The translations under genes were made by a program, and so were the position numbers. The notes under the pieces are model-generated. The model saw only the letters and a list, made by a program, of their open reading frames with translations. It did not search any database and was not told where the DNA came from. Source: a virus. Taken from it: a stretch of 21,066 nucleotides of DNA. Numbering within the stretch: the stretch's first letter is position 1; the number at the start of each line of letters is the position of its first letter. The stretch lies in the UHGV virus genome UHGV-0139471. One strand, given 5' to 3'. Below, piece by piece: positions 1-20,926 of this stretch.

Positions 1-215
1 GCAAACCCAACAGCTTTCCCGCCTGTCGCAGCCAAGGGGTCAACATCAAAAACGTTTTCACAATAATGAAGCGTCTCAGGATGGTTAGTTCGGTGCATGG
101 CCACTGCGTTTTCGTCATGGTTTATCGCAATATCAACGCTACGACCGATCGCCATTTCTATCCCAGTTGATGCACCGCCACCGCCCGCAAAGTTGTCTAC
201 GATGAGCTCACGCAT
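1..215 (-). CDS. DNA (cytosine-5)-methyltransferase, N-terminal part (gene runs off the window start)
   Basis: Reverse-strand translation from ATG at 215..213 gives MRELIVDNFAGGGGASTGIEMAIGRSVDIAINHDENAVAMHRTNHPETLHYCENVFDV...; FxGxGG AdoMet-binding motif I and a following N-HP segment are typical of C5-MTases. Not in the ORF track because it is truncated. Start lies 2 nt past the upstream gene stop (210..208). Confidence 0.6.
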   Translation of the reverse strand, partial: MRELIVDNFAGGGGASTGIEMAIGRSVDIAINHDENAVAMHRTNHPETLHYCENVFDVDPLAATGGKAVGF

Positions 216-1161
216 GAGCGGTCCCCCTCATGCTGCCGACAAGACCACCAGCAACGGTAATGATTTCGCTGGTGGGCACCCGCTCCAGCCACAACTGGTT
301 AATGTGGGCCTTCAGCTTGTTCTGCTGTGAGAATTCCAGATCCTCTGCGCCTTGTAACTGTTCAAAGACGAGACCAACTTCCAGTGGCCAGATCCGGGAT
401 TCAGCCTCAGCTAGTGATGCAACAGCATCGGGGATGATCACTTCAGGAGACTGAACTGGCGAAGCTGGTGACAGGAATTTTCCCGCAGCAAACTCAGCCA
501 AAGCCATACTTGCGCGCCCTTTCGCCTCAAGCTCTATACGATCGATATAGCTAAAGCGCTCCCCACACCATGTCTTATCAAATATCACGATAGCGCCAGC
601 AAAGAAGGCGCTGGTGGGCTTCTGCTTTTCGTCGGCCGGCACAAACCACGTTGGGAGATCGAATCCAATACGACCACGAATAAACATGATGTGATCGGCA
701 TATTCCGGCCACCATGTTTCACTTGTTGCTGACTTCACGAGGTAAATGTAACGACCACCCTTTTCACGCTGCTCGGCGGTATAGTTCATAATATGAGTCA
801 TGCCAGTGATGGCTTGTTTTTCATGGTACTGCGAGCGGCTGTACGGCGGATTAGCAAAGGCCGCTCCTCCGAGTTCTACCAGACGACCAGACCAGTCCTG
901 CGTCAGCGCATTATCTTCAGCGGTATACCATGCCGGGCATTTTGTATTGCTGTCGTCTGCAAACAGGTCCAGCACCAGCGGGCCAAACAAAGCGTTAACG
1001 CCCCAGAACAGCAGATCAGGGGTACGCCATTGATCCCCGACTTCTTTCAAATAATGCGAACTTCGCTGGCGCTGTTCCTCAAGTGCCAGGCAATAAGGGC
1101 TGACGCTTTTTGTTAAATTTTGCTCTTCTGCGGTCATAGCTTCTTGTACTTCCTGACTCAT
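208..1161 (-). CDS. DNA N6-adenine methyltransferase (phage Dam-like) with about 100 aa C-terminal extension
   Basis: 317 aa ORF; catalytic NPPY motif (FANPPYS); N-terminal WRTPDLLFWGVNALFGPLVLDLFADDSNTKCPAWYTAEDNALTQDWSG matches my recollection of phage Dam-family MTases; GGGGAAA Shine-Dalgarno 5 nt upstream of ATG. Confidence 0.8.
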   Translation of the reverse strand: MSQEVQEAMTAEEQNLTKSVSPYCLALEEQRQRSSHYLKEVGDQWRTPDLLFWGVNALFGPLVLDLFADDSNTKCPAWYTAEDNALTQDWSGRLVELGGAAFANPPYSRSQYHEKQAITGMTHIMNYTAEQREKGGRYIYLVKSATSETWWPEYADHIMFIRGRIGFDLPTWFVPADEKQKPTSAFFAGAIVIFDKTWCGERFSYIDRIELEAKGRASMALAEFAAGKFLSPASPVQSPEVIIPDAVASLAEAESRIWPLEVGLVFEQLQGAEDLEFSQQNKLKAHINQLWLERVPTSEIITVAGGLVGSMRGTAHA

Positions 1162-1352
1162 AGTTTTCCCCTGCGCTGATCAGCATTAACAAGTGCTCTC
1201 AGTAACCAGTAACGGCGATCAAAGCTGAAAAGGTCATTTCTGAGGAGTGCATATTTTCTGCGAAAAATAACGTCGTGCTGCCACCAGTAACGCCAGTGAT
1301 GCAAACGCACAAGGCGCCGGAGACTTATCAAAATCCTCTTCAATCGGAGCAC
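1158..1352 (-). CDS. hypothetical small basic protein (64 aa, Arg/Trp-rich)
   Basis: GTG start at 1352 preceded by GGAGG at 6 nt spacing; stop TGA overlaps the ATG of the Dam-like gene (ATGA coupling). Composition is unusual, so coding status is uncertain. Confidence 0.3.
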   Translation of the reverse strand: MLRLKRILISLRRLVRLHHWRYWWQHDVIFRRKYALLRNDLFSFDRRYWLLRALVNADQRRGKL

Positions 1353-1798
1353 AAGTCACCTCCGCAGTAATTTCCGGCCAGATAGCATGACCCGGCGGAA
1401 TCATTCATGTTTCTGGCGTTTCGAACAGAAGCATTCTTAAGACGCAGGTATCGCTCTCTTGCTTTAGCCGTACAGTTGCTGTCACAAAGTTGCTGCCATA
1501 CCGTCGCCGCACGGCGGTAATAGCGTTTCTCTTCCAGCTTTTTGGCTGTCGCTTCAAGGGCAAGAATCTCCCCCGAAAGCCCACCAGGCAGGTACTCTTC
1601 AATATCGATGGATCCCGCTACGAAGTAGATAAACCCACCAGTAACTTCAACGCTGGCAAGTTCCCCGTCGTAGTAAAGGCGATGAACAGCGCTCTTCACT
1701 GTTACCGGTTTGGTTCCAGGAAATGCCGCAGTGATATCGCGCAGCATTTTGCCGGGATTCTTCTCAATAAATTCAAAGATCGACTTGGCTATGTTCAT
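1340..1798 (-). CDS. putative DNA-binding regulator (winged-helix-like N-terminus, PerC/ANR-like C-terminal segment)
   Basis: 152 aa ORF; ATG overlaps the stop of the upstream replication gene (ATGA); C-terminal KRYYRRAATVWQQL resembles the RRAA..W signature I associate with PerC-like prophage regulators. Functional call is tentative. Confidence 0.5.
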   Translation of the reverse strand: MNIAKSIFEFIEKNPGKMLRDITAAFPGTKPVTVKSAVHRLYYDGELASVEVTGGFIYFVAGSIDIEEYLPGGLSGEILALEATAKKLEEKRYYRRAATVWQQLCDSNCTAKARERYLRLKNASVRNARNMNDSAGSCYLAGNYCGGDLCSD

Positions 1799-2706
1799 CC
1801 CCGGAACCCCCGTGGAATCGTGGTTTGTACTGGACTAATTGAATTAACATCCCGCGGTCTGGTTTTGTCCCACGACTCCCTTGGCGGGCGGCCTTTAGCA
1901 TCCCAACGGATAGCGCTTTGCAGATATCCCTCGAATTTTTTAGGGCCGAAAAGTGTCTCGGGTCGCATGTACTGGTATTGCTCGTCGTTGCCATGCCAGT
2001 GCTCATGCTTGACGTCAATTACCAGTTTCAAGTCGCTAACGGTATGACCTTCGCGGAGGCGGGCGCGAATGTTCTCCAGCGAGGTCTTAGATTTCTGGTA
2101 ACGGGAACCGCTGACCAGATTCAGGTGTGCCAGAACTTCGATCGCGTTATCGGTAATAACAACTTCAGGATCCGGCTTATCGTCGGGTTCCGCAGGAGCC
2201 CGACAAGAAGGTTTTTTAGATGACGGATCTAATGACGGATCTAATGACGGATCGCCTTCAACCATTGAGGGGTCCTCCCGCAATATTTGAGGGGGTACAG
2301 ACCCATTATTTGAGGCATCAGAATTTGACCCCTCAAATTTTGAACCCTCAAATTCTGAGGCATCAAATTTTGATTGTTCACGTGGCGTTGCGTAGAAAAT
2401 TTTTGCTTCAGCTGCTGCACGTTCCAGCATGTCAACATTGAGTTTATAAACGTTCGAATTATTCTTTCCGCCCACGCGCCGTTCCTGCTTCTTCAGCCAG
2501 CCTTTAGCCTGAAGCTTTTTGATAGCGCTGCGGACAGTATTCTCGCTCTTGGCGCCGATCTGTCGCTGAATAGTGGTTACCGCTGGCCATGACACACCTT
2601 CGTCATTACTGAAATCTGCCAGGCGAGCCATGACCGCTATTTCTGAGATTATCAGCCCTTTGAAAGCGCATGCTTCCCATACGAGGCCGTGTAATTTACT
2701 GCTCAT
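1795..2706 (-). CDS. replication initiation protein (N-terminal HTH domain, conserved phage C-terminal domain, repeat-rich linker)
   Basis: 303 aa; GAGGG Shine-Dalgarno 6 nt upstream; N-terminal HTH-like segment (VSWPAVTTIQRQIGAKSENTVRSAIKKLQAKGWL); position downstream of cro/cII as in lambdoid O genes; iteron-like repeats lie inside its linker-coding region. Confidence 0.7.
   Translation of the reverse strand: MSSKLHGLVWEACAFKGLIISEIAVMARLADFSNDEGVSWPAVTTIQRQIGAKSENTVRSAIKKLQAKGWLKKQERRVGGKNNSNVYKLNVDMLERAAAEAKIFYATPREQSKFDASEFEGSKFEGSNSDASNNGSVPPQILREDPSMVEGDPSLDPSLDPSSKKPSCRAPAEPDDKPDPEVVITDNAIEVLAHLNLVSGSRYQKSKTSLENIRARLREGHTVSDLKLVIDVKHEHWHGNDEQYQYMRPETLFGPKKFEGYLQSAIRWDAKGRPPRESWDKTRPRDVNSISPVQTTIPRGFRG
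2221..2254. repeat. 12-bp in-frame tandem repeat (tgacggatctaa, 2 full copies plus a partial) inside the replication gene
   Basis: Direct reading: tgacggatctaa tgacggatctaa tgacggatcg; encodes DPSLDPSLDPSS in the initiator linker. Confidence 0.7.
2284..2371. repeat. iteron-like direct and inverted repeats; candidate replication origin embedded in the initiator gene
   Basis: Core TTTGAGG(G) / CCCTCAAA occurs in both orientations (tatttgaggggg 2284-2295; tttgaggcatca 2309-2320; cccctcaaatt 2329-2339; ccctcaaatt about 2345-2354; gaggcatcaaatttt 2357-2371). Arrangement is analogous to lambda ori inside gene O. Confidence 0.5.
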
Positions 2707-2875
2707 GGCTGCCCTCTACTTCCCTGAACTTGCGTTGAAACTGATCGAGTGGGCTAAAGCACTCGTGGGAATAGCCTTCCCGCAGGTAGATGACGCGACG
2801 TGTCTCAGGCTCCCAGCGGATAACTCTGGCTGGATTGCCATAGTGGTCTTTGAACTTCCGGTTAACTTCTCGCAT
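2696..2875 (-). CDS. hypothetical small protein (59 aa)
   Basis: Below the ORF-track size cutoff. ATG at 2875..2873 with GGAGG about 11 nt upstream; translation MREVNRKFKDHYGNPARVIRWEPETRRVIYLREGYSHECFSPLDQFQRKFREVEGSHEQ looks like a real small charged protein; stop overlaps the replication gene start. Competes with the overlapping 2716..3063 ORF. Confidence 0.35.
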   Translation of the reverse strand: MREVNRKFKDHYGNPARVIRWEPETRRVIYLREGYSHECFSPLDQFQRKFREVEGSHEQ

Positions 2876-3047: not shown

Positions 3048-3599
3048 TTATTTCTCCATACACAAAGATTTATTCGCCACGACGCCCGGAGCTGCACACT
3101 CGCGGGCGTCACTATTTTCTGGCAGGCAATAAACACGAGAAATCAGGTTGAGAAACGTCATCAGCGTGACCCTGAACTGGTAGGCGATATCATTCAGACT
3201 TTGCCACTCCCCGTGTGTAACCACCCCATCATCGATATATTCCCGATAGGCGCTGACCAGCTCGCCGAGTTGTCCCACCAGCTCCGCCAGCTTCAAACCA
3301 ATCTCTTCGTTCTCGTCTTCATGAGCTGCGCCAGATACATGGATCCCGTTGTCGGTTTCACGTGAAAAAACATCGGCGATGTAGCTAACACCTGCTGCCT
3401 TCTGCAGGACCATTGCCCAGCCCATAGGGAATATCTGATCTCCACCAGCACGCAGCCGGTTAAAGATCGCGTCCTGGGTGGTATCCAGAATCTCAGCTGC
3501 TTCGATATAGCCACCAGGTAACGCGGCTATTGTTTTACGGATTGCTGCCACCAGCCACGCGGGCTGTTTTTCTACTTTCCAGGTTGGTTCATTACCCAC
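3048..3599 (-). CDS. CII-like lysogeny regulatory protein (phage 186 CII / CP76-type)
   Basis: Track ORF 3048..3686 overlaps cro; a GTG at 3599 preceded by AAGGGG Shine-Dalgarno lies just downstream of the cro stop and gives 183 aa. Segment AAEILDTTQDAIFNRLRAGGDQIFPMGWAMVL resembles the HTH region of 186-type CII as I recall it. Confidence 0.5.
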   Translation of the reverse strand: MGNEPTWKVEKQPAWLVAAIRKTIAALPGGYIEAAEILDTTQDAIFNRLRAGGDQIFPMGWAMVLQKAAGVSYIADVFSRETDNGIHVSGAAHEDENEEIGLKLAELVGQLGELVSAYREYIDDGVVTHGEWQSLNDIAYQFRVTLMTFLNLISRVYCLPENSDARECAAPGVVANKSLCMEK

Positions 3600-3627
3600 G
3601 GTGTACCCCTTATCTCTGTGGTTCCTA

Positions 3628-3837
3628 TCAAACTTTTTGTTCTTTAAGCTTGCTATACAGCTCCGGTTGGAAAACAAGTTTCCCATCGGTGCGGTACGCG
3701 GCTTCAGCAGCCCTCCCTTTTGGGATCAAGCGACCGGGTCTGTTCCGCCACTGATAAACAGCTTCGCTGGATATGCCAAAGAACTCGGCTACCTTCTCAG
3801 CGTTTCCAAAGTACTTTTCAACATCATCGGTGGTCAT
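3628..3837 (-). CDS. Cro-like HTH repressor
   Basis: 69 aa; HTH-like segment VAEFFGISSEAVYQWRN; GGAG Shine-Dalgarno 6 nt upstream; divergent from the cI-like gene across a 100-bp operator region. Confidence 0.7.
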   Translation of the reverse strand: MTTDDVEKYFGNAEKVAEFFGISSEAVYQWRNRPGRLIPKGRAAEAAYRTDGKLVFQPELYSKLKEQKV

Positions 3838-3865: not shown

Positions 3866-3894
3866 ATAATAATTACCAATCTATCTTTGGTCAA
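3866..3894 (-). promoter_or_regulatory. pR-like promoter for cro and the leftward early operon
   Basis: On the minus strand: -35 TTGACC (3894..3889), 17-bp spacer, -10 TATTAT (3871..3866). Confidence 0.5.
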
Positions 3895-3937: not shown

Positions 3938-4564
3938 ATGGAAACTGTCGGACAACGAATAAAATCGCTTAGGCGAATCACCAGAACCTCACAAAAAGAG
4001 CTTGGGAAGTTTTGTGGGGTCAGTGATGTCGCAGTTGGGTATTGGGAAAAGGACGTAAACGTCCCAGGAGGGGAATCTCTTTCCAAACTAGCAAAATTCT
4101 TCAATACATCAATTGATTACATACTTTTTGGCACTGAGTTTGAGGGAAACTTAATAACTAAGATGCGAAAAGTTCCCGTGATATCGTGGGTGCAAGCAGG
4201 ATTATTCACTGAATCAAAGCCTGAAGATGTCTTGCATGATGCCGAAAAATGGGTGGAAACGTCTCTCCGCATCAGCGATAACTCGTTTGCCCTTGAAGTA
4301 AAGGGAGACTCAATGACAAATCCTAATGGACTGCCCACGATTCCTGAAGGCGCAACGGTCATCGTTGATCCAGACATTGAGCCAATTCATGGAAAGATTG
4401 TAGTTGCACGAATAGATGGGACCAACGAGGCCACGGTCAAAAAACTGGTTGTAGACGGTCCGCAAAAATTTCTTGTCCCGCTAAATCCCCGTTATCCTAA
4501 CATCGCCATCAATGGTAACTGCGTCATTATTGGTGTGGTTAAAGGCGTTCAATACGAGCTCTGA
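3938..4564 (+). CDS. cI-like prophage repressor (HTH plus S24 LexA-like autopeptidase domain)
   Basis: 208 aa; N-terminal HTH (QKELGKFCGVSDVAVGYWE); C-terminal Ser/Lys dyad context (GDSM ... TVKKL) typical of LexA/cI self-cleaving repressors; divergent from cro. Confidence 0.9.
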   Translation: METVGQRIKSLRRITRTSQKELGKFCGVSDVAVGYWEKDVNVPGGESLSKLAKFFNTSIDYILFGTEFEGNLITKMRKVPVISWVQAGLFTESKPEDVLHDAEKWVETSLRISDNSFALEVKGDSMTNPNGLPTIPEGATVIVDPDIEPIHGKIVVARIDGTNEATVKKLVVDGPQKFLVPLNPRYPNIAINGNCVIIGVVKGVQYEL

Positions 4565-4583: not shown

Positions 4584-4616
4584 GACACCAAGCTAAGAAA
4601 AGTTTGGTGTTTTTTC
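4584..4616 (+). terminator. rho-independent terminator-like hairpin after the cI-like gene
   Basis: Stem acaccaa (4585-4591) / ttggtgt (4604-4610), 12-nt loop, followed by TTTTT. Confidence 0.5.
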
Positions 4617-4645
4617 TTGACGACAAAACTAAGTTAAGTTAGATT
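4617..4645 (+). promoter_or_regulatory. pL-like promoter with overlapping operator (CTAAGTTAAGTTAG at 4629-4642)
   Basis: -35 TTGACG (4617-4622), 17-bp spacer, -10 TAGATT (4640-4645); the third CTAAG-N5-TTAG palindrome overlaps spacer and -10. Confidence 0.5.
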
Positions 4646-4749
4646 TTCATCTATCAACAGCGAAGAGGCAGGACGCCCACGAAGTAGCCGCCCGGGGCAT
4701 ATGAAGTCCGGGATGATTCGCTGACAGATAAACCAAATAGGAACAGATC

Positions 4750-4983
4750 ATGGCAAGCAAAGGCATTGAAAACCTTATCAAGGACGCATTAGCAAACGGC
4801 TGTCATGTAGTCCGTAAAGCGCATCGCTTCGAGGTAAGCAAGAAAGGCCAAAAATCAATCACTCTTATTATTTGTGAAGATGGCACAGCTTACCGGGGAG
4901 ATATTGACCTAACGATCGCCATAGCCATTCGCACTCAAAAAGAAATGCGCAGCATCCTCGGCCTGCCGGCCAAGGCAAGTTAA
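4750..4983 (+). CDS. hypothetical protein (77 aa); weak HicA-toxin-like resemblance
   Basis: AGGAAC Shine-Dalgarno 7 nt upstream; occupies the first position of the pL-side operon. Segment NGCHVVRKAHRFEV and C-terminal RSILGLP loosely resemble HicA (G-W-x-x-R-x-x-GSH ... ILKQAGL), but the GSH motif is not conserved. Confidence 0.5.
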   Translation: MASKGIENLIKDALANGCHVVRKAHRFEVSKKGQKSITLIICEDGTAYRGDIDLTIAIAIRTQKEMRSILGLPAKAS

Positions 4984-6100
4984 TTACCACAGGTATCTTC
5001 GGGAGGGGTTGCGAAGCTGGATTGACCACCAGCAACAGAAACTCACCCGACATACAGCAGCCGTTTAACCCACGGCGTCGGGGGTCCAGTAGACCTGGAT
5101 TAATACTGTAGGGGTTGTGCCGGTTGGTCGCCGGCGCCCCGCCCGAAGATACCTGAACGAACATGGCGAAGCCGACAGCGTTGAAGGCGATTTTCTCGGT
5201 TTGCGCGCTAAACAATAGCGGGGGTGAAATCGGGGCGGAGAAGCAGAATCCGCGATGTCGGGACTTGATACTTCCGGCCATACCAACAAGCCGAATGATC
5301 GCGTAACGATCCTTTGCATCTGCCCCGGCGAGGTGGCGCCGCCGGACCGGGGTAGATGAATCGTACACAACATGAAAGCGCATTCCATCTTCATCCGTCG
5401 TGGGGACTGGTTTGTAACTGAAGGAGTGCGCTTCCAGTTGTGAACGGCAATATTCACGACCGTTGTATGGCACATGCAGCGTTAGCAGCCCGGATGGTTC
5501 CCTTGAAGTTCCATGCGCTATCCGGACAACTGGAATGTGCAAGCTAAGTGTTTCAGGCACGACGTGCGCCCCACCAGCGCGGCGAAAAGGTGTGACGCCC
5601 GGGAAGAGTCCGGGACACAACGATGAGGGCATTGACGAGCAAGGCACAGAGTCTGGTTCGATTCCAGACGCCAGGATAGTTCTATATCTGGTGATGGGCA
5701 GGGAAAAGGTCCGTTCGATTCGGACACCGGCAGTGCTCTCTTCGTTGTGGTAATTGCGGCTATGCGCACGTGACGAGCCAAACCCGTTCAATGAATGCGT
5801 TTCCGGGCAGTGTACGTCGCCGGTTATGGCTTAACCCGGCAGGTGGAGGCACCACCGCCACAACCTAGTTAACTGTGCTGTGTGTAGTCTTGGCGGTTAT
5901 CCAGTTTTCCACTATCCAAAGGAGGAAGAGGATAACGTTCTGATGGATAACCGCCCTTTTTACACAATACACAAGAGCATCACCGGGCGACGGGCTCATA
6001 ACCCAATCCACCCGGGCGGCGTCCTAACCGCAGGTGCTCTTCTGTGTTGTGTACGGAGAAATTCCCGGCGGTGGCAGCCGCCTTTCGAGAGGGTAAAACC

Positions 6101-6472
6101 ATGAGTAATGATCGCATGACAGTCGTGCCCGATTTCCTGGGCGAACTGGACGCCGGCGTATTCATGAACAAGATTGCGGCGGCTCTGAATACCACCGCGC
6201 TCGGCGTTCTGAACAACGGCAACAAAGGCAAAGTAGTCCTGACCTTTGATTTTGAGCGTATGGGCAACTCTGTTGAAGAGAAGCGCGTCAAGATTAAGCA
6301 CAAGCTGAACTACAGCACCCCAACTCCCCGCGGCAAAGCGTCGGAAGAGGACACCACCGAAACACCAATGTGGGTCAATAAAGGCGGCAAGCTCACCATC
6401 CTGCAGGAGGATCAAGGGCAACTCTTCGGTATCACCGGCACGGTGGACGGAAAGCTTAAAGCGGCTCAGTGA
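6101..6472 (+). CDS. hypothetical prophage protein (YfdP-like by size and position)
   Basis: ATG at 6101 with GAGAGGG Shine-Dalgarno; 123 aa; first gene of a rightward operon whose next two genes match the YfdQ/YfdR pattern of E. coli CPS-53. Confidence 0.65.
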   Translation: MSNDRMTVVPDFLGELDAGVFMNKIAAALNTTALGVLNNGNKGKVVLTFDFERMGNSVEEKRVKIKHKLNYSTPTPRGKASEEDTTETPMWVNKGGKLTILQEDQGQLFGITGTVDGKLKAAQ

Positions 6473-6528
6473 TCCGCACGCACAAATTCACTGATACCAC
6501 TTCGCTAATCAGTTAATAAGGAATTTTT

Positions 6529-12277: not shown

Positions 12278-12445
12278 ATGAACTTGGTTTTCTCTCTCAT
12301 TTTTTTAACGGGCTGCATACTGCTTGGCAGTATTTCTGTTTTTTTGTGGGGTGATGGTCGCAGGAAACTTAGCGTTGCATTTGCACTATTGGTTTTGATG
12401 TATGCATTTGCAGCCTGTATAAATTTATTTTCGGGGAGGTTGTGA
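12278..12445 (+). CDS. very small membrane protein (55 aa, two hydrophobic segments)
   Basis: Below the track cutoff. ATG 2 nt after the upstream stop, GAGGGG upstream; MNLVFSLIFLTGCILLGSISVFLWGDGRRKLSVAFALLVLMYAFAACINLFSGRL; TGA overlaps the recombinase ATG (TGATG). Confidence 0.35.
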   Translation: MNLVFSLIFLTGCILLGSISVFLWGDGRRKLSVAFALLVLMYAFAACINLFSGRL

Positions 12446-13323
12446 TGTTAAGCGATCTTCTTATCATGGTTGACCGCCGTGCTCAGGCGGTCAGTTTGCG
12501 CGAAAAAACAATTATTAACGAACGTCACGCCGTCCGTATGCTGGAGCCTGTTTTATCTCTTGGGGTACGCGCTGCGAGCGTACCTGATACATGGGTAAGA
12601 TACGCCGACCGTTGCATTGATAATGGGCTGGCGGCGTCTACGGTTCGCCAGCGCATCGATTGCGTTGCGGCGGTTGTAGCCTGGGTAATTCATGCTGATA
12701 TTAAATTCAAACCAGCCGCGCCGGGCTCTCTGAGCAGGATGCTTGATGCCATGCGTACAGCGGCAAGAGCTATAGGCAAGCGGATAAAGCGTCACAGGGC
12801 ATTGAGCAGGCCAGCCCGTGTAAGTGTTGACGAGTATTCTACGGTAGTGCGGGATATTGAGTCTTTACGGGATCCATACAGGGCCGCAGCCCGTATGATG
12901 CTGTGTTTTGGAATGAGGGCAACAGAAACGCTTTCACTGTCTCCATCATCAATTCTTTCAGGTGGGAAGTTGTTTGTTCCTGACCGGGAGACTAAAAATC
13001 ACTCCGATTTGCTTTTACCTTTGCCAATTAAATACATTCCTTTAATCGAGGAGTGGCTAAGCGTGATAGGTGAGTCAGAAATAAAGTACAACACGCTTGT
13101 AACGACGATTTCCCGCGCCGGGATTAAATGGCGCTGCCATGATTTAAGAAAATTATTCAGAACTTCCGCCGCCGTGCGTGGTGAGGATTATCTTGCAACA
13201 GAATTGATATTAAATCACGCAGTGAAGGACGTTCCGAGCGTTTACTTACAATCTCCACCGTTTGCGGCAATGAGGCGAGTTTTAAACAATTCGATTGAAG
13301 AATATTTACAGGTTAAAGGGTAG
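12445..13323 (+). CDS. divergent tyrosine recombinase (integrase/invertase family)
   Basis: About 292 aa; GGGGAGG Shine-Dalgarno 5 nt upstream of ATG 12445; catalytic-residue pattern readable: Arg (GMRATETL), H-x-x-R (CHDLRKLF), downstream His and Tyr (ILNH ... SVYLQ). Short for a phage integrase; no obvious arm-binding N-domain. Confidence 0.65.
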   Translation: MLSDLLIMVDRRAQAVSLREKTIINERHAVRMLEPVLSLGVRAASVPDTWVRYADRCIDNGLAASTVRQRIDCVAAVVAWVIHADIKFKPAAPGSLSRMLDAMRTAARAIGKRIKRHRALSRPARVSVDEYSTVVRDIESLRDPYRAAARMMLCFGMRATETLSLSPSSILSGGKLFVPDRETKNHSDLLLPLPIKYIPLIEEWLSVIGESEIKYNTLVTTISRAGIKWRCHDLRKLFRTSAAVRGEDYLATELILNHAVKDVPSVYLQSPPFAAMRRVLNNSIEEYLQVKG

Positions 13324-13326
13324 GGA

Positions 13327-13584
13327 ATGGAAAAATCAGCGATTAAAGATAATGATATTATGTATCAAAAGAAGTATCCGAGAGATTGTTTGTTTAAATT
13401 GCTTCAACTACGCACTAATTTAAAAGCGAAGCCAGATATTTACCGGATAGAAATGATTAACCGCAGCGGTGATAAGATTTTGATGGGAGGGCGGCAAACA
13501 ACACAGGAGGCGATTTCTCTTTATCAGGATATTGCGACACTTAGCCCGTCAGAAGTGGAGGCGGCATTCAGTAGCATGGTCTAA
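13327..13584 (+). CDS. hypothetical protein (85 aa)
   Basis: Immediately follows the recombinase; followed by a strong terminator. Confidence 0.5.
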   Translation: MEKSAIKDNDIMYQKKYPRDCLFKLLQLRTNLKAKPDIYRIEMINRSGDKILMGGRQTTQEAISLYQDIATLSPSEVEAAFSSMV

Positions 13585-13603
13585 GAGCAGACCACAAAAA
13601 CGA

Positions 13604-13628
13604 GCCCGGCATCTGCCGGGTTTTTTTA
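13604..13628 (+). terminator. rho-independent terminator
   Basis: GC stem cccgg / ccggg (13605-13620) followed by TTTTTTT (13621-13627). Confidence 0.65.
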
Positions 13629-14662
13629 TGCCTGAACATTGCATCACAAATAATGTAAGTAAAAAGTTAAATATCGATTAACACAAAAGCAACATAATAC
13701 ACGTTAAATCATGTGACGGGATTGTTAAATGTATGTTGTGTGGATAATTTTATAAGCATCATGAAATGATGGTTAAGTAAATGATTGAAGTCTCGTTTTA
13801 TGCAAAATAACCAAAAATAAATTTAACCTATAAAATTCAGTGAATTATGTAATTTTGATTGTTTTTCATTCAAAAGTGACTCGATTTTTGGCGTCAATAC
13901 CTTGCATTTTTGCGCTGAGGAAAAATAAAAATAATTAAGTGAAATATTCATTAATTTAATCAATAGGTTATAGTTGTGAGGCAAACGGATGTATAAGGTT
14001 TGACATTCAGTGTCAGCACGAGTAAAAGACCAAAAAGAGGGCAATTAAAGCCATTTTATTTAAAAATGTTTCCACTTGAAATAAAGCCGGACATTTACCA
14101 CCTTACCTATAGCTATACGAATCAATAAGCTATGTTATTTTTCGTGGTGTTTACTGTTTTATTCGCCGGAAATGTTTCTGTAATCTCATCTGACCAGTGC
14201 GTTTAGCATCTTGACATGAGTTTGTTATGAGTTAGCAGAAAGGGGGAAAGCATAAGCATGTGGGGTGGCGGAAAAGATAAAATCGCGCTCAGGCTTGTTT
14301 CCACCAGCGATTGCAGGAATCTATCACTTTTCACTGATGTTTGATAACGGTTAAATATTTGACCGTTCAATTATGTTTGCTCTGTTACATATTCATTGCG
14401 TTAAAAATGAGCATAACAAAAGCAACAAATATCAAACATTCATGTTGGCACGTTAAATGTTATCCATATTGAAAGTGAGTAGTGATGCGTGGTTGGGGCG
14501 ATATTGACCACTAACTTAAATCGTGCAGGTGGGTAGTTTCATGCTGCTTATCCACAGATTTAGCCTTGTGCGTAATATTGACACGTATTACCGCTGGAGC
14601 CGTTTCTGTAATTAGTCAGGCCATTGCCTTTAAATCACCTCTATATAAAGGAGGTGAACTTC

Positions 14663-15616
14663 ATGGCTTACGGGCGTCAGTTCGAAATAACCGTTAACTG
14701 CACAGATGGAGAGACGATCCACATTACTGATGTGGACGTTGATTTCTCGTCTGTTCGCGACGATGAGAAAGAGCCAAACGAGGCCGATTTAACGTTGTGG
14801 GGTTTAACACCACAGACTCAGAACGCCATCGCTCAGGCAGGGTCAACCGTCAGTGTTGCCGCTGGCTATATAGATGAAGGGATGTTCACCCTGTTTCAGG
14901 GCGAACTTATCAGTGCCGTGACCATCAAGCCTAATGAGGTATACGGCCTGAAAATGAAAATCTACGAAGCGCTGATTCCGTTCCGGGCCAGCGTAACATC
15001 GCGCACGTTTCGCAAAGGTCAGAGCCTTAAAGATGCTGTTTTACAGGTAGCGTCCGATATGGGGATGGGTTGTCAGTTCTCTAAATCAGCTTCCTCTCTC
15101 ACCCTGGCTAAAAGCGTCAGCGCTGCGGCATTGTCCCGCGATGTGCTTACCAGCCTCTGCAAGCCAGTTAATGCCAACTGGTCGCTTCAGTATCAGTCAA
15201 TCATTGTCACTGCCGGTGATTCAATTCTTACCGGTGCCGCTGTTTTCTCCCCTAAAACAGGCTTGCTTGGTGCGCCGCTTCTGAAAATTCACTCCCCGAA
15301 ACGCACGAAGAAAAAGAACCCTTCCGAAAAAGAGCAGATCCAGAAGAAGCACGACAAAAGCATAACTACCTATGTCTGGCCCCCTAAGGGCTCGCAGGTT
15401 GACTACTCAAAAGGTGCTCGCCGCCAGATGGGGGTTATTGAGGCTGTTACATGGGAATCGTTGCTTTATGGCGGGGTTGAGATTGGCGAACAGGTAGAGC
15501 TTTCTTCTCCATCAATGGGCGAAGGCTGGATGGTTATTGTGAAGAAGATTTCCCATCGCTTTAGTACCCGCGACCGTCAGGCGTGGTCATCGTCATGGGA
15601 GGGCATCATTGCATGA
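14663..15616 (+). CDS. phage structural protein, first gene of baseplate-like operon (possible hub component)
   Basis: ATG at 14663 with strong AGGAGGT Shine-Dalgarno (track ORF starts at an upstream TTG); 317 aa; stop overlaps the spike gene ATG. Hub assignment rests on position only. Confidence 0.55.
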   Translation: MAYGRQFEITVNCTDGETIHITDVDVDFSSVRDDEKEPNEADLTLWGLTPQTQNAIAQAGSTVSVAAGYIDEGMFTLFQGELISAVTIKPNEVYGLKMKIYEALIPFRASVTSRTFRKGQSLKDAVLQVASDMGMGCQFSKSASSLTLAKSVSAAALSRDVLTSLCKPVNANWSLQYQSIIVTAGDSILTGAAVFSPKTGLLGAPLLKIHSPKRTKKKNPSEKEQIQKKHDKSITTYVWPPKGSQVDYSKGARRQMGVIEAVTWESLLYGGVEIGEQVELSSPSMGEGWMVIVKKISHRFSTRDRQAWSSSWEGIIA

Positions 15617-16323
15617 GAGCCGGTAGCCAGATTCAGGCCATTGTTGAGCAGGCGCTTAATTCAGCGCTTTTTTCGCTTGAGGCAACGATTGTTTCCGTCA
15701 GCGGCGGGCGGGCAACTGTCCAGCCATCCCCAAAACGCATATTCGGTGACAACTCGGAGCCGATTGCTTATCCGGCTGTTGAAAACGTTCGTTTAGTTTC
15801 GCTCGTCTGGGATAGCGGTAAGTCAGGCGTTAGCGGGCGAGTTTCTCCGGGGGATGAATGTCTCCTTATCGCACTTTCTCACGGAGACGGCGACGAGCCA
15901 GACCATAAGACCATTTCAAACGCTATCGCTATATGTGGATTTTCAGACGTTGCCAGCCACCAGATGCCGGATGAGGCAGGATTAAGAGTGTTCAGCGGTA
16001 GCGCCTTTATTGAATGGGATGACGGAAGCATTAAGGGCGATACCGGGCAAGGCGCAACTTTCGAGTTTACGGGCAACAAAATGACCGTTAACGCGCCGGG
16101 CGGTATCGATATGACAGCGCCAATGACAACCATAAACGGGAATTTGACGATTTCAGGATCCATCAGTCAGGGCGCAGAAGGTGGCGGCAATGCTGACTTT
16201 GGCGGCAACGTCACCATAACCGGCGATAGCAAAGCCGCTGACCACATCAGCGGCGGTAAGTCCTTCAATTCTCACACGCATAAAGAAAACGGTGAGGGCG
16301 GTCAGACCGACGCCCCGACATAA
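15613..16323 (+). CDS. baseplate spike protein (gpV / Mu gp45-like)
   Basis: ATG 15613 in ATGA overlap with the upstream stop; N-terminal OB-fold-like segment with GRVSPGDECLLIALSHGDGDEP (P-x-GD-x-V-L-V-x-F-x-GD pattern of V-type spikes); Gly-rich beta-helix-like C-terminus ending in an H-x-H apex motif (NSHTHKENGEGG). Confidence 0.65.
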   Translation: MRAGSQIQAIVEQALNSALFSLEATIVSVSGGRATVQPSPKRIFGDNSEPIAYPAVENVRLVSLVWDSGKSGVSGRVSPGDECLLIALSHGDGDEPDHKTISNAIAICGFSDVASHQMPDEAGLRVFSGSAFIEWDDGSIKGDTGQGATFEFTGNKMTVNAPGGIDMTAPMTTINGNLTISGSISQGAEGGGNADFGGNVTITGDSKAADHISGGKSFNSHTHKENGEGGQTDAPT

Positions 16324-16332
16324 GGAAAAACC

Positions 16333-16710
16333 ATGAAATTAAATGACCATGCGGCACAAATCGCACTTTCTAACGGTGGCTTTCTGATGGCGGGTGACTA
16401 CAGCACAACCGTTAGCAAAGGCGAGATTATCAACATCACTGAGCGAACCGGGCTTGTAGTTGAGCGTGTCGAGTGCATCACCCTGATTAACGCGCCGTTG
16501 TATATGGTCATGGCGACGTGCAGGGAGAACAAAGACCAGTACATGCCATTTTACAGCGATTTGCCGTTTGAATTACCGCATCAAGCGGCGATGGCGCAAA
16601 TGTTAAATGATGCAGGCGAAGGCTTTGACCTTGATGACCTGCTGGATATTGAGTCGCTGGATTCTGCTGTGACGGTCGTCCACGTTGAAAAATGGATGCA
16701 CACCGAATGA
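16333..16710 (+). CDS. hypothetical protein (125 aa) within baseplate operon
   Basis: AAGGAAA Shine-Dalgarno; acidic C-terminus; no family recognised. Confidence 0.55.
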   Translation: MKLNDHAAQIALSNGGFLMAGDYSTTVSKGEIINITERTGLVVERVECITLINAPLYMVMATCRENKDQYMPFYSDLPFELPHQAAMAQMLNDAGEGFDLDDLLDIESLDSAVTVVHVEKWMHTE

Positions 16711-16925
16711 ACATCACAACAACTCAGTATCGACAGGGTTTAAAGGGCTGTTTCATTTCCGCAGAGAGGCCGCAGGCTGGCGACTCTCTGACGCTGGTAA
16801 TGCCAACATGCAGAGGGCGGCGCATTATCCCTGTTGGCGAGGTTCAGCGGGTCGAGGCTGTAGGTACTAGCCGTTGCCTCGTATGGGTTTCAAAGCTGGC
16901 ATTCGTTGAGGGGATGAATTACTGA
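16707..16925 (+). CDS. hypothetical small Cys-containing protein (72 aa)
   Basis: ATG at 16707 in ATGA overlap with the upstream stop (track shows a longer form from 16692); its stop overlaps the next ATG. Confidence 0.45.
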   Translation: MNITTTQYRQGLKGCFISAERPQAGDSLTLVMPTCRGRRIIPVGEVQRVEAVGTSRCLVWVSKLAFVEGMNY

Positions 16926-17272
16926 TGCTGGACATTATGCAGGATGAAAGCGGAGTCATTCTCCAAAATGGCGATTTGGTGTTGGATGGTGGCATTGATG
17001 GCATTGCACAGCAGGCAGAAATCCGCGTAGGTACTAATCGCGGCGAGTGGTGGCTTGATGAAACTCAGGGGTTGCCGTGGTTGCCTGGCATTATGGCGTC
17101 ACGTCTGCCGGTTTCGATTGTATCGAACATGATTAACGCAGAGGCTCGGCGAACTTCTGGTGTGACTGATGCAAGAACCACAACCATCAATGATGTTAAG
17201 GGGGATTACACGATCCGCTTTGCGGTTTATGTCGGTGCCGATAGTACGGAGGTAACGAGTGGAATTAATTAA
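16925..17272 (+). CDS. baseplate wedge protein (gp25/GpW-like or related small baseplate protein)
   Basis: 115 aa; segment RVGTNRGEWWLDETQGLPWLPG fits the T-x-x-GE ... P-x-x-G pattern of gp25-type proteins; lies directly before the large wedge-like gene. Confidence 0.5.
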   Translation: MLDIMQDESGVILQNGDLVLDGGIDGIAQQAEIRVGTNRGEWWLDETQGLPWLPGIMASRLPVSIVSNMINAEARRTSGVTDARTTTINDVKGDYTIRFAVYVGADSTEVTSGIN

Positions 17273-18668
17273 TGATGGCGGCTGGCACGGTGCCAGACTG
17301 CCAGAGCTGCGCGGCGACATTTACCAGAAATTGCGCGACCTTCTAGGGAATATAAGCCCGGACGGTGATTCCCTGATTGGTCAGGTTATGGCGGTTGTCG
17401 CTGAAAATGACCTGAATATAGTGGAGGCCATCGGCTGGACGTTTGCTGGTTTCTTCATTTCATCAGGTGAAGGCATCCAGCTTGACGGTATAGGCGAGGG
17501 GTTCACGCTTCCTCGCTATGGCTTAACCCGTTCATCTGCCGATGTGGTTTACCTGCTGGCTTCAGGGCAGGTAATCGCGTCTGGTGAGACTTTCACTATC
17601 TCCGGTATTTCTGGTGACTGGTCGCCGTCAGGCAGTATTCAGGCCAACGGTAAAAGTGCTACCGGGTTTGTGCTGGAGATTAAGTCTGATGCTATCACCA
17701 CGGGAAATACCTTCACCATATCCATCAACGGTAAGCCATATTCAACGCAGTACCAGACAGGCGATACGTCTGATTCGATTTTATCCAGGCTGTATCCCAT
17801 CATTGCCGCCGCTGATACGTCAGTAACCACATACTCAACAGAATACGGGTTATTGCTTTATGCAGCGGATGGTAAATCGCTCATCCAGTTTTCATTTTCT
17901 GATGATGTTTTTTCCATCGTCCGTACTGGAATGCCCGCAACAACATGGTATGACAGCGATACTGAGTTTCCTGATGTTCGATTCGGCTATGTGGCAACAG
18001 ATGACATTCTGATTCTAGCCAACGGTAGTAAAGGCTTTGAAATAGAAGATGACGAGCAATACAGAGAGCGTCTTTTCGAAGCAGCGGAGGCAGGGAGAAA
18101 GAATGTCAGCGCATCAAGACCGGGCATAAAAAACGCCGTTCTAGCTGTTGCTGGCGTGAGTTACGTCACTGTTAACACCAACAGAGGCATTGAGACAGAT
18201 GCTGATGGTCTGCCGGGGAAATCAGTTCAGGTGTTTGTTGCTGGGGGGGATAGCGATGCTATAGCGCAGGCCATATATGACGCGGCAGCGGCTGAGTGCG
18301 GTTTCTACGGCAACACATCGGGTACAGCAACTGACGGTACAACTACCGAAACAGTGTATTTCACTCGCCAGAGCTTCCAGCTTGTCTATGTTTCCGTTTC
18401 CGGTGATACATGGGATGCAGAGACAACAGGCAAGCCAGACGATTACGAGAGCGTAGCTAAAAGCGTTATCACTGGCTATTTCTCACAGCTTGAAATGGGG
18501 CGTGACGTTTTCGCAGGTCAAATATCTGCCCGTTTGGTTACGGCTTTTCCGACGATGACGGATGTAACAGTAACGGTAGGTACTTCTGAATCACCAACCG
18601 GAAAAACCGTTCCCATAAGTAGCGGTGTTGTCGCAGTTACAGATTCTACTTCTGTGGTGGTGTCGTAA
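17259..18668 (+). CDS. large baseplate wedge protein (J-like by position)
   Basis: 469 aa; GTG start with GGAGG at 6 nt spacing; synteny (after the W-like gene, before an I-like-sized gene); no motif confirmed by eye. Confidence 0.5.
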   Translation: MELINDGGWHGARLPELRGDIYQKLRDLLGNISPDGDSLIGQVMAVVAENDLNIVEAIGWTFAGFFISSGEGIQLDGIGEGFTLPRYGLTRSSADVVYLLASGQVIASGETFTISGISGDWSPSGSIQANGKSATGFVLEIKSDAITTGNTFTISINGKPYSTQYQTGDTSDSILSRLYPIIAAADTSVTTYSTEYGLLLYAADGKSLIQFSFSDDVFSIVRTGMPATTWYDSDTEFPDVRFGYVATDDILILANGSKGFEIEDDEQYRERLFEAAEAGRKNVSASRPGIKNAVLAVAGVSYVTVNTNRGIETDADGLPGKSVQVFVAGGDSDAIAQAIYDAAAAECGFYGNTSGTATDGTTTETVYFTRQSFQLVYVSVSGDTWDAETTGKPDDYESVAKSVITGYFSQLEMGRDVFAGQISARLVTAFPTMTDVTVTVGTSESPTGKTVPISSGVVAVTDSTSVVVS

Positions 18669-19423
18669 TGGAACCATCAATTAAAAAACCGGGTCAACTG
18701 GCAACTGAACGACTTACCTCAAAGGTCAGATTACAGAAAAATATCGACCTCGTTTCCGGTATCAAGGCCAACCAGCAGGGCATGGTTGATGCACTGGACT
18801 ATCTGAAAAAGGGTTTCTCAATTACTGATTCTTCGGGTCTTTTACTTGATGCATGGGGGGAGAGGTTCGCTATACCGCGAGAGGGCCGCGACGATGATAG
18901 TTACAGGATAGCTCTCTTGCAGGGTGCAGGGACGCAATCTGTTTCGCTTCAGTCACGCCGCGCTGTCGGTGGATTCATCCAGTTAGCCTACGGAATTGCA
19001 TGGCTGCGACTGAACAGGGTAGGGCTGACCACTGGCGCGGTGGGTGCGGCTTTCAACCGCGTACCGTTACGTGCTGTTTTCGTCCATTGTGGCGCGATGG
19101 CTCCAGATATCGAACTGCCGGAAACGCTGGTTGCGGCAACTTTTGCCGGGGATATATACAGCGCTGCAATACCTCCTAACGTCAAACTAACCCACCTCGC
19201 GCCAATGTTCCCCGGTAATGCGTTTCCGGCTGTGTGGGGTGGTATCAAGTACGAGAAGACGCAAAAAACCGTGATGGCTACAGCAACCAAAGGGATCCGT
19301 GTCACGGCGACAAAGTCACTTTTGACCCGGATAGCAGCTACACAAACCATTAATGAAAATGAGCTTGTGGAGCCATTCAACACGCTTGTAACAGTCAAAA
19401 AGATGAAGGTGACAAATGGATAG
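18668..19423 (+). CDS. baseplate/tail protein (gpI-like by position)
   Basis: 251 aa; TAATG overlap with the upstream gene; assignment by synteny only. Confidence 0.45.
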   Translation: MEPSIKKPGQLATERLTSKVRLQKNIDLVSGIKANQQGMVDALDYLKKGFSITDSSGLLLDAWGERFAIPREGRDDDSYRIALLQGAGTQSVSLQSRRAVGGFIQLAYGIAWLRLNRVGLTTGAVGAAFNRVPLRAVFVHCGAMAPDIELPETLVAATFAGDIYSAAIPPNVKLTHLAPMFPGNAFPAVWGGIKYEKTQKTVMATATKGIRVTATKSLLTRIAATQTINENELVEPFNTLVTVKKMKVTNG

Positions 19424-19649
19424 CTGGGCCAATACTGACAAAACTTACGCTGGTCAAGGTGGTGCTGATATTCCAAACAAGCAAGAGCCATCAGAGGAAA
19501 TGCAGGCTACCGGGTTCGCGCCGACCTACTTTGATGTAAATGGCAATCTGGTGTTTGGGGATGGGATAAGCGCTCAGGTAATGAATTACATCCTCAACGA
19601 CCTGTACAAAAAATATCAGGAGCTTTTAGCCAGGGTAGAAACACCATGA
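19416..19649 (+). CDS. small tail-associated protein, paralog A (77 aa)
   Basis: Shares GFAPTY ... G-x-L-x-x-GD ... N-x-I-x-NDLY with the next gene; overlaps the upstream stop. Confidence 0.5.
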   Translation: MDSWANTDKTYAGQGGADIPNKQEPSEEMQATGFAPTYFDVNGNLVFGDGISAQVMNYILNDLYKKYQELLARVETP

Positions 19650-19882
19650 ATACATTTTCGACCGTTGCTCGTAATTATCCTGTAAGTGGCGGAATTTATC
19701 CGAGCAAGAAACAACCATCGGCAGCGAAACAGGCCGATGGCTTTGCGCCAACTTACATTAATGCAGGCGGAAAATTGATTGAAGGGGATCCGGTTGACGT
19801 GGCGGAGCTTAACTTCATTTTTAACGACCTGTACGCGCAGGCGGCACACATTGACCAGCTTCTTACGGCTAAGGGGAAATAA
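19646..19882 (+). CDS. small tail-associated protein, paralog B (78 aa)
   Basis: ATGA overlap with paralog A; same conserved motifs (DGFAPTY, GD, NDLY). Confidence 0.5.
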   Translation: MNTFSTVARNYPVSGGIYPSKKQPSAAKQADGFAPTYINAGGKLIEGDPVDVAELNFIFNDLYAQAAHIDQLLTAKGK

Positions 19883-20514: not shown

Positions 20515-20598
20515 CCGCTGAGAAATAAAAAACTCAATCTCTGATTTTGTGTCAACATTTCCCCGGTTTGTTATCAACAATTCGGGGATTTGTCTTTT

Positions 20599-20862: not shown

Positions 20863-20876
20863 GAATTTTAAAATCA

Positions 20877-20904
20877 CCTCACTACGTTTTTGTAGTGAGG
20901 TTTT
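20877..20904. terminator. bidirectional terminator-like hairpin between convergent genes
   Basis: Stem cctcactac / gtagtgagg with loop gttttt; T-run downstream on the plus strand and A-run upstream, so a U-tract exists in both orientations. Confidence 0.55.
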
Positions 20905-20926
20905 GATAAATTATAAACTTGATTAA

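Follow-up and report, generated by a model that had tools for sequence, protein, structure and literature searches.

A probable iteron-type replication origin within the initiator gene of a lambdoid Klebsiella prophage

The segment at positions 2167–2376 is probably the vegetative replication origin, of the iteron type, of a lambdoid Klebsiella prophage and lies inside the gene of its own initiator. It was identified in a window of 21,066 nucleotides—the whole stretch of DNA that was analyzed and to which all positions refer. The reading as an origin, already proposed in the initial annotation, is supported at the sequence level by selection on the repeats as DNA and by palindromes that track the N-domain of the initiator. 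The segment would be a further case of the arrangement known from lambda, P22, and phi80, but with an initiator of a different family. No description of an origin for the HTH_36/Phg_2220_C initiator family was found in the literature. The features of the region are the following:

208–1161: gene of a Dam methyltransferase, downstream of the initiator gene
1340–1798: gene of a PerC-like activator, downstream of the initiator gene
1795–2706, minus strand: replication initiator gene, 303 residues (from ORF, Pfam, PHROG, AlphaFold, and Foldseek analyses)
2167–2376: candidate origin, about 210 bp of linker-coding DNA (gene nucleotides 331–540), delimited by a trough of synonymous diversity
2176–2210: GC-rich dyad or hairpin, an inverted repeat with arms 2176–2191 and 2195–2210
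2202–2217, gene strand: A-tract block AAAAAACCTTCTTGTC, common to all initiator classes examined
2220–2255, gene strand: 12-bp tandem repeat with three GATCCGTCA units at 2245–2253, 2233–2241, and 2221–2229
2258–2290: two isolated iteron-like copies, TCAACCATTGA at 2258–2268 (a perfect TCAR-N3-YTGA) and GCAATATTTGA at 2280–2290 (one mismatch)
2303–2373: putative iteron array of four perfect 11-bp palindromes, TCAR-A-N-T-YTGA, and a degenerate fifth unit
3628–3837, minus strand: Cro (operon annotation)
3866–3894, minus strand: pR-like promoter upstream of cro, TTGACC-17-TATTAT, with 10 of 12 consensus matches
3938–4564, plus strand: S24 repressor (operon annotation)

The initiator consists of two domains and a linker. 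The N-domain (residues 1–106) is a winged helix of the HTH_36 type (Pfam, 35.2 bits at a cut-off of 25, E = 1e-8), and the C-domain (residues 180–271) is a helical Phg_2220_C or DnaD-like domain (82.1 bits at a cut-off of 27, E = 3e-23). The AlphaFold model features a folded N-domain and a helical C-domain with these boundaries; between them, linker residues 108–173 have a pLDDT below 50 and are predicted to be disordered. The protein matches PHROG 428, 'replication initiation protein', with E = 2e-63. A Foldseek search against the PDB gave only generic hits, to dimeric DNA-binding proteins with a winged helix, and their E-values were weak. The gene order—cI, cro, a cII-like gene, and then the initiator gene—is that of a lambdoid early operon of the pR type; domains, PHROG match, and operon all agree with the earlier identification of the gene as a replication initiator. 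Transcripts from the pR-like promoter would cross the initiator gene and with it the candidate origin. In 77 of 83 related loci, a phage Dam gene follows the initiator gene at a downstream distance of no more than 1.5 kb. No helicase-loader or helicase gene of the P, DnaC, or DnaB type was found near the initiator gene in this part of the operon. A database search returned 1599 homologs of the initiator, and the family is widespread among prophages of Klebsiella, Enterobacter, E. coli, Salmonella, Yersinia, and Aeromonas. Klebsiella phage Kp4866-6, with a genome of 45.5 kb, is a 99.6% identical relative; no near match was found in the E. coli genomes searched.

The repeats occupy nucleotides 331–487 of the 912 nucleotides of the gene, which belong to the linker-coding part. 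The four perfect palindromes are located at 2318–2328, 2333–2343, 2348–2358, and 2363–2373, in an exact phase of 15 bp that is kept by the degenerate unit at 2303–2313. Tandem Repeats Finder reports the same period, with 4.3 copies at 2308–2370. The sequence TCARANTYTGA is matched four times in the window, all within the array, compared with an expectation of 0.18, and none of 100 shuffles reaches four. For the looser TCAR-N3-YTGA, 10 matches stand against 1.55 expected, and five of the 10 fall within 2258–2373. In relatives, one isolated copy is retained exactly 15 bp upstream of the first GATCC. The window contains no tandem arrays besides the 12-bp and 15-bp arrays, and no other array exceeds 2.4 copies in the whole genome of Kp4866-6. 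Both had been placed correctly by the initial annotation and exceed chance as judged by repeat finder (12 bp × 2.8 and 15 bp × 4.3) and shuffles. The motif by which it had described the iterons, TTTGAGG/CCCTCAAA, does recur on both strands, and CCCTCAA is found at 2265, 2287, 2330, and 2345 on both strands; the functional unit, however, appears to be the 15-bp-phased palindrome, of which the heptamer is only the flank.

The palindromes adjoin a core with a common order in all initiator classes: GATC short repeats, present in most classes; the block AAAAAACCTTCTTGTC; and the GC hairpin. The unit of the 12-bp repeat on the gene strand is GATCCGTCATTA (2.8 copies with 100% match at 2220–2253 according to Tandem Repeats Finder). 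The repeat forms three Dam sites at 12-bp intervals and encodes DPSL-DPSL-DPS; translation and pLDDT values thus agree with the DPSL repeat in the linker that had been noted before. GATCCRTCA is matched four times in the window, compared with 0.37 expected, and three of these matches lie within 2221–2253. Relatives have two copies of GATCCRTCA, 24 bp apart; in another initiator class, the corresponding place is taken by three CAGATCA repeats with spacings of 12 and 14 bp; and Aeromonas phage 51 features the 12-bp tandem GATCCTAACAAT/GAACCTAACAAT. The L118 and sal3 origin classes are without GATCs. The GATC/A-tract module has an AT content of 58%, compared with 57–69% in relatives. The hairpin is kept in 16 diverse sequences with a loop that is free to vary, and one of its pairs occurs as G-C in nine, C-G in five, and U-A in two of them—compensatory changes. 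A scan of viral contigs for the 14-mer core gave at least 120 loci, 83 of them in open frames of fewer than 150 codons and probably due to chance, and provides no estimate of prevalence.

These phased palindromes recur at the corresponding gene position in phages LLS, phiNP, YeP1, SfIV, and KpF5; the LLS-type repeat is TCAAAATCTGA. In SfIV and KpF5, which have the same N-domain and another C-domain, palindromes and phasing are unchanged. The initiator of Salmonella phage 118970_sal3 features the reverse combination: its C-domain is 78% identical, its N-terminal part is unrelated, and its gene carries another palindrome array with a period of 23 bp. An Aeromonas homolog of 30% identity has palindromes of the GCAGAnTCTGC type, the HTH_36 protein O of phi24B is accompanied by three copies of GGGGCAGGAGCTGCCCC, and yet other palindromes are found in a third N-domain class. 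The palindromes hence co-vary with the DNA-binding N-domain and not with the C-domain, as is expected of cognate iterons.

Synonymous diversity among 41 unique related genes is 0.012 in codons 111–169, compared with 0.27 and 0.24 in the flanks (about 20-fold lower; Fisher p = 4e-20). Nonsynonymous diversity in the same codons stays at 0.074, so that dN exceeds dS. Variants are spread over the three codon positions as 11/14/12 in the constrained segment, compared with 12/6/121 in the 5′ flank, and pairwise third-position differences amount to 1 of 70 inside and 99 of 233 outside (p = 6e-13). An equal synonymous trough is present in a second subfamily of 21 LLS-like genes. Codon choice is biased as well: serine is encoded by TCA at nine of 13 places inside the segment and at three of 17 outside, and the Asp codons within the GATC units are always GAT. 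As judged by these substitution patterns, the constraint on 2167–2376 is directed at the DNA and not at the protein. The repeats had been located correctly in the initial annotation, but the constrained element is wider than the extent given there and covers about 2167–2376. The prediction that copy number varies between isolates and alters linker length was borne out: natural variants carry in-frame deletions of 30 bp—exactly two 15-bp units—or of 12 bp, one 12-bp unit, and relatives have three to seven in-phase palindrome units. Since the linker is disordered, the protein would tolerate whatever peptide the origin DNA encodes, and the number of iterons can shift by whole in-frame units.

Low divergence in the center of a gene could also arise at a recombination junction, where the DNA is kept alike as the crossover point for swaps of N- and C-domain modules and is homogenized by gene conversion instead of being preserved for an origin role. 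Domains are indeed shuffled around the segment—residues 1–149 are common to SfIV and KpF5, and residues 182–303 to sal3 and F1055—and the block AAAACCTTCTTGTC and the hairpin are present in all module combinations. However, homogenization alone cannot explain why the remaining changes are spread evenly over the codon positions and why dN exceeds dS, and it accounts neither for phased palindromes, of which each N-domain class has its own family at the corresponding place, nor for compensatory changes in the hairpin. As a replacement for the origin, the junction is therefore improbable. The two roles are compatible: the junction may be a by-product of the origin, and the low divergence of the segment could partly stem from it.

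About equally small is the chance that the array is a cis-regulatory element other than an origin, for example binding sites of the initiator or a regulator that serve autoregulation or copy control, or else an element within the gene that acts as structured mRNA or as an antisense terminator. The segment folds strongly in single-stranded form, RNA or DNA (z = −3.85), the GC hairpin covaries, and on the plus strand, which is antisense to the gene, G-TTTTTT (2211–2217) directly follows the hairpin in the manner of a terminator. On the other hand, the plus strand has no promoter-like site on the low-coordinate side of the hairpin, a consensus scan for promoters and terminators over 2100–2500 found none, and neither permissive nor gathering thresholds brought an Rfam match in the region. 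Three to seven palindrome copies and whole-unit deletions also mean that no single RNA structure is maintained, and the palindromes are absent elsewhere in the phage, including its promoter regions. The antisense hairpin with its T6 tract is a minor rival and concerns the hairpin part only.

Still less probable is an explanation at the protein level: a low-complexity linker whose repeats, SKFEG and DPSL, were born by slippage and are kept, or drift, as a flexible peptide. In its favor, the repeats keep the frame, fall in the disordered linker, and vary by whole units as slippage would have it. But this explanation predicts synonymous sites that diverge no less than those of the flanks; the segment shows about 20-fold less synonymous divergence while its amino acids continue to change, and each unit is a palindrome at the DNA level whose third positions are fixed, as in the TCA and GAT codons. 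An overlapping gene that constrains synonymous sites—a 73-residue ORF at 2220–2441 on the plus strand or a 65-residue ORF at 2241–2438 on the minus strand—was rejected as hardly credible: in each of the six phages compared, two alternative frames stay open over the palindrome array, but this is what repeat arrays produce by construction, no alternative frame spans the full constrained 210 bp in all relatives, and with 7–13 of 37 variants synonymous in each of the six frames, none shows an excess.

For the preferred reading, an iteron-type origin, the following course of initiation is proposed. The initiator would be expressed from the pR-type operon, whose layout is evident. Winged-helix dimers of the N-domain would bind the TCAR-N3-YTGA palindromes, four of them in tandem at 15-bp phase and the others as isolated copies; such binding is inferred from the dyad symmetry, the phasing, the DNA-level constraint, and the covariation with the N-domain. 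By analogy with the lambda O-some acting on its adjacent AT tract, the nucleoprotein complex may destabilize the adjoining moderately AT-rich core with its GATC 12-mers, A6 tract, and GC hairpin, and the DnaD-like Phg_2220_C domain may then recruit the helicase machinery of the host. At a spacing of 15 bp, adjacent palindromes face different sides of the helix, whereas known lambdoid iterons are about 20–24 bp apart; this was counted against the reading as an origin, as were the missing loader gene and the negative results that follow. An AT-rich tract of the lambda/P22 kind was not found, and no spot in the region falls within the least-stable 1% of the window. Between 1700 and 2800, no DnaA box with up to one mismatch and no exact IHF consensus was detected, and oriC-type 13-mers gave no match with up to three mismatches, save one at chance level elsewhere in the region.

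A core that has neither an AT-rich tract nor a loader gene raises the question of how the host helicase gets loaded. One speculative answer, which we regard as rather unlikely, is a portable cassette for unwinding and helicase loading that is independent of the initiator: GATC repeats at a spacing of about 12 bp in most classes, the A-tract CCTTCTTGTC, and the covarying GC hairpin would take the place of an AT-rich DUE and a phage loader. The hairpin could then be a signal of the primosome-assembly type on unwound DNA, and the GATCs could couple firing to Dam methylation. As an origin, the fragment of about 210 bp would be usable for replication assays, for phage-derived Klebsiella replicons, and for forecasting whether prophages in one host are incompatible or interfere with each other in replication. 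It would also illustrate cleanly how a DNA function can govern the evolution of part of a gene, the encoded peptide being variable and only weakly constrained as protein; annotation and dN/dS scans need to allow for such segments.

The layout found here agrees with published descriptions of known origins (PMC5043065, PMC7466680, PMC8022706), among them ori-lambda inside gene O. The lambda iterons are given as 19 bp (PMC5043065) or about 20 bp (PMC8022706) long, and lambda has four of them, whereas Stx phages have six (PMC7466680). The candidate origin and ori-lambda both sit midway along the initiator gene, where the interdomain linker is encoded, and in both a less stable tract comes after the dyad-symmetric repeats. 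Both lie downstream of pR, cro, and cII, and in both the number of iterons varies among relatives and changes the length of the protein (PMC5043065, PMC7466680). The dyad-symmetric repeats, of which the lambda class has at least three, are present here at the sequence level as four perfect phased and three looser copies. The differences are these: an initiator of HTH_36 and Phg_2220_C instead of the Phage_rep_O family (PF04492) of lambda; 11-bp palindromes at 15-bp phase instead of 19-bp iterons; the lack of the 40-bp A+T-rich block and of the P-type partner gene directly downstream; and the conserved GATC short repeats with the covarying GC hairpin. Homology to lambda-type O proteins was considered and discarded, the only match being a distant one of the N-domain to the 'O' of phi24B, itself an HTH_36 protein.

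Also alike in layout are P22 gene 18 and phi80 gene 15, for which the annotated P22 rep_origin (NC_002371) and the annotated phi80 gp15 sites (JX871397) were used. The relative positions are equal: nucleotides 353–497 of 816 in P22, 365–441 of 909 in phi80, and 331–540 of 912 here. The analogy to lambda-type phages drawn in the initial annotation therefore holds for the layout but not for the initiator, which stands outside the lambda-O family; BLASTP of the initiator against phi80 gp15 and P22 gp18, both PF04492, gave no similarity. As in P22, phi80, and phage L gene 18, every initiator has its own repeat sequence (PMC8022706). Iterons are followed by an AT-richer tract and then by a GC dyad, which in P22 is CCCCCTAAAGGGGG. 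The AT tract reaches 80% over 40 nt in P22 and 67.5% in phi80, compared with 58% here, and the helicase or loader gene that lies directly downstream in those phages (gp12, gp14) is not found here.

Outside the lambdoid phages, oriC features a DUE of 13-mers with GATC sites and P1 oriR features GATC heptamers. The present segment resembles them in that short tandem repeats, each with a Dam site, adjoin putative initiator-binding sites; its units, however, are 12-mers of 58% AT and show no 13-mer consensus. The replisome organizers of Gram-positive phages, such as G38P of SPP1 and Rep of TP901-1, likewise have the origin inside the gene. The matches listed by tblastn to replication proteins of Staphylococcus, Streptococcus, Lactobacillus, and Bacillus phages align to the C-domain, which is the only shared part. 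What unites these systems with the present one is a C-domain of the DnaD-like or Phg_2220_C type and the location of the repeats inside the initiator gene.

The window contains the early region of a lambdoid prophage, with the following features:

3938-4564 (+), S24/HTH repressor
3628-3837 (-), P22-Cro-like gene, divergent from the repressor
3894 to 3866 (-), pR-like promoter, before the P22-Cro-like gene
3048-3686 (-), cII-like gene
2696-2875 (-), DUF4222 gene, 59 aa
1795-2706 (-), gene of the 303-aa protein, Pfam HTH_36 and Phg_2220_C
1340-1798 (-), PerC-like gene
208-1161 (-), Dam methyltransferase

The 303-aa protein of this operon is a replication initiation protein by its PHROGs label, and its C-terminal part matches the PHROGs family 'DnaD-like helicase loader'. 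It has 1599 homologs in the database search. Klebsiella phage Kp4866-6 carries the gene at 99.6% identity, and no near match occurs in complete E. coli genomes. In the AlphaFold model (mean pLDDT 68), residues 1-106 form a folded N-domain and 180-271 a helical C-domain, with disorder at 108-173 (pLDDT <50); the repeat arrays described below thus encode the predicted linker. The initiator start codon lies in an 11-nt overlap with the DUF4222 gene, which occupies the same position in the close relatives L089 and L090. No helicase or loader gene is found beside the initiator gene or among the window ORFs scanned.

Beside the repressor gene, about 1.9 kb (4600-6500) carry only overlapping, oddly composed ORFs, none convincing, with GC raised to 0.56 at 5001-6000; this stretch has no credible Rfam or tRNA match, and the one ORF scanned against Pfam (6044-6472) has none. 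Farther on, 12442-13323 weakly matches a phage integrase; then come a kilobase of low GC (0.37 at 13001-14000) and baseplate-type genes (14624-15616, E217_GP41-like; 17259-18668, Baseplate_J). The prophage may end in the part from 12442 to 21066, next to a second cluster of tail genes or a second element.

The initiator gene carries two tandem arrays by Tandem Repeats Finder: a 12-bp unit in 2.8 perfect copies (2220-2253) and a 15-bp unit in 4.3 copies (2308-2370). No other array was found in the window, and none with >2.4 copies in the rest of the whole Kp4866-6 genome. The 21 kb contain four copies of TCARANTYTGA, at 2318, 2333, 2348 and 2363 (expected 0.18), and GATCCRTCA is found three times at 2221-2253 (whole-window expectation 0.37). 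The looser pattern TCAR-N3-YTGA picks up a further copy at 2258-2268, with near copies at 2280-2290 and 2303-2313. Tool and counts thus confirm the repeats that the initial annotation had placed here. Its TTTGAGG(G) heptamer is present, but only as the flank of the actual unit, an 11-bp palindrome with dyad symmetry and regular phasing.

The central segment is constrained at the DNA level. From 80 related loci (IMG/VR), 73 unique genes were extracted; diversity was calculated for the 41 unique genes of 912 nt, which diverge by up to 17% in nucleotides.

Diversity along the initiator gene (41 genes)
Codons 1-110: synonymous 0.27, nonsynonymous 0.026; synonymous variation in 81/110 codons
Codons 111-169: synonymous 0.012, nonsynonymous 0.074; synonymous variation in 5/59 codons
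Codons 170-303: synonymous 0.24, nonsynonymous 0.095; synonymous variation in 96/134 codons

The synonymous trough (Fisher p = 4e-20) recurs in a second subfamily, the LLS-like genes (n = 21). A single pair, which sidesteps phylogenetic non-independence, gives the same picture: the window and locus L020 differ at 1/70 central third positions versus 99/233 in the flanks (p = 6e-13). Variant alleles at codon positions 1/2/3 number 11/14/12 in the centre and 12/6/121 in the 5' flank, and serine is encoded by TCA in 9/13 central cases versus 3/17 elsewhere. The constrained stretch extends from gene nt 331 to ~540, that is, window 2167-2376.

The arrays change by whole units. A loss of exactly 30 bp, two 15-bp units, is seen on five contigs, and in another variant exactly one 12-bp unit is missing; both changes are in frame. 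This bears out the copy-number change between isolates predicted in the initial annotation; tandem arrays in all genes collected have 3-7 in-phase units.

Phages LLS, phiNP, YeP1, SfIV and KpF5 feature, at the same gene position, 3-5 TCAAAATCTGA-type palindromes in exact 15-bp phase. An isolated copy lies exactly 15 bp before GATCCGTCA in LLS, phiNP, SfIV and KpF5; YeP1 has one too, but without this exact distance. In all five, a second GATCCRTCA lies 24 bp further on, and the block AAAAAACCTTCTTGTC and a GC dyad follow. The window's 12-bp repeat is thus this conserved GATC module in a local version, in which the outer copies keep the 24-bp distance. SfIV and KpF5 match the window protein over residues 1-149 only and differ in the C-domain, yet their palindromes are kept.

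Initiators with other N-domains carry other repeats. Salmonella phage 118970_sal3 encodes a 437-aa 'putative transcriptional activator' whose Phg_2220_C domain is 78% identical to the window's and whose N-part is unrelated; at least five palindromes of another kind, the CCGCAAACCAGATTGCGG type with 23-bp period, precede the common AAAACCCCTTCTTGTCCGG-hairpin block (L086 3250-3470). Domain, palindromes and core together suggest that this is probably the initiator and origin of 118970_sal3. The initiator of Aeromonas phage 51 (30% identical) features, within its linker-coding part (L092 2703-2830), two GCAGAnTCTGC-type palindromes in each copy of a perfect 45-bp duplication, and then a 12-bp tandem GATCCTAACAAT/GAACCTAACAAT beginning GATCC. 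The HTH_36 'O' protein gene of phi24B carries three GGGGCAGGAGCTGCCCC repeats. A scan with a core 14-mer turned up a third N-domain class (L113, L118 and L195; IMG/VR contigs), of the pattern MSRIF.IVQ.MSGQ... and fused to Phg_2220_C or an SfIV-type C-domain. In each of them, palindromic repeats of a separate kind precede the common AAAACCTTCTTGTC-hairpin core, with a shared block of CAGATCA x3 at 12 and 14 bp spacing in between in L113 and L195. By these sequence comparisons, the repeats covary with the N-domain: the kind of palindrome goes with this DNA-binding domain, not with the C-domain.

At least three classes of N-domain, and two or three of C-domain, have this core in common. Its hairpin (2176-2210) shows compensatory changes—one pair is G-C in 9, C-G in 5 and U-A in 2—and a freely varying loop. 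Read antisense to the initiator gene (2176-2217, +), it is directly followed by G-TTTTTT, resembling an intrinsic terminator, as in LLS-type genes; the scan gave no + strand promoter on its low-coordinate side.

Segment 2167-2376 is probably a replication origin, in line with the initial annotation's reading of 2221-2371: DNA-level constraint, covariation with the N-domain and a layout like known origins support this. A recombination junction between modules would account for the low divergence but leaves the phased, class-specific palindromes and the flat codon-position spectrum unexplained, and is improbable. Equally improbable is a regulatory, RNA or antisense-terminator element that is not an origin: the region folds (z = -3.85) and has the T6 run, but the antisense strand shows no promoter ahead of the hairpin, Rfam gave no family, and the copy-number variants keep no single common structure. 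A slippage repeat serving the protein only is very unlikely, and an overlapping gene, least likely of all, was rejected because central variants have no synonymous excess in any frame of either strand.

At such an origin, N-domain dimers would bind the palindromes, the complex would open the adjoining GATC/A-tract module, and the Phg_2220_C domain would bring in the host helicase; pR transcription may help. In 77/83 related loci, a gene for a Dam-family adenine methyltransferase is located ≤1.5 kb downstream of the initiator gene, directly adjoining or with a PerC-like gene between. This proximity and the conserved GATC repeats hint that methylation may be involved; in SfIV-type phages the GATCs are kept with no Dam gene nearby.

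An iteron origin inside its own initiator gene is an ordinary kind of element, and the candidate adds one to an initiator family without a described origin found in the literature. Less ordinary, and worth experiment, are the shared GATC-repeat/A-tract/hairpin core and the missing classical AT-rich tract and loader gene. Scans of the region gave neither a helix-stability minimum nor a DnaA box, an IHF site or a 13-mer.

The lambda origin lies within gene O and features four inverted-repeat iterons binding O dimers, then a 40-bp A+T-rich region; pR transcription activates it (PMC5043065). Stx phages have six iterons, adding 13 residues to O (PMC7466680), a difference paralleled by the whole-unit changes here. 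P22, lambda and phage L carry their own repeats inside their respective initiator genes (PMC8022706); in annotated records, the phi80 gp15 sites occupy gene nt 365-441 of 909 and the P22 origin gene nt 353-497 of 816. Unlike initiators of lambda-type origins, the window's lies outside Phage_rep_O, and its repeats are shorter and closer together than in known origins. The middle module has 58% AT (57-69% in relatives), compared with 67.5% in the phi80 tract and 80% in that of P22. The P22 origin runs from iterons through its 80%-AT tract to a CCCCCTAAAGGGGG dyad, and here, too, iterons are followed by a less GC-rich module and a GC dyad.
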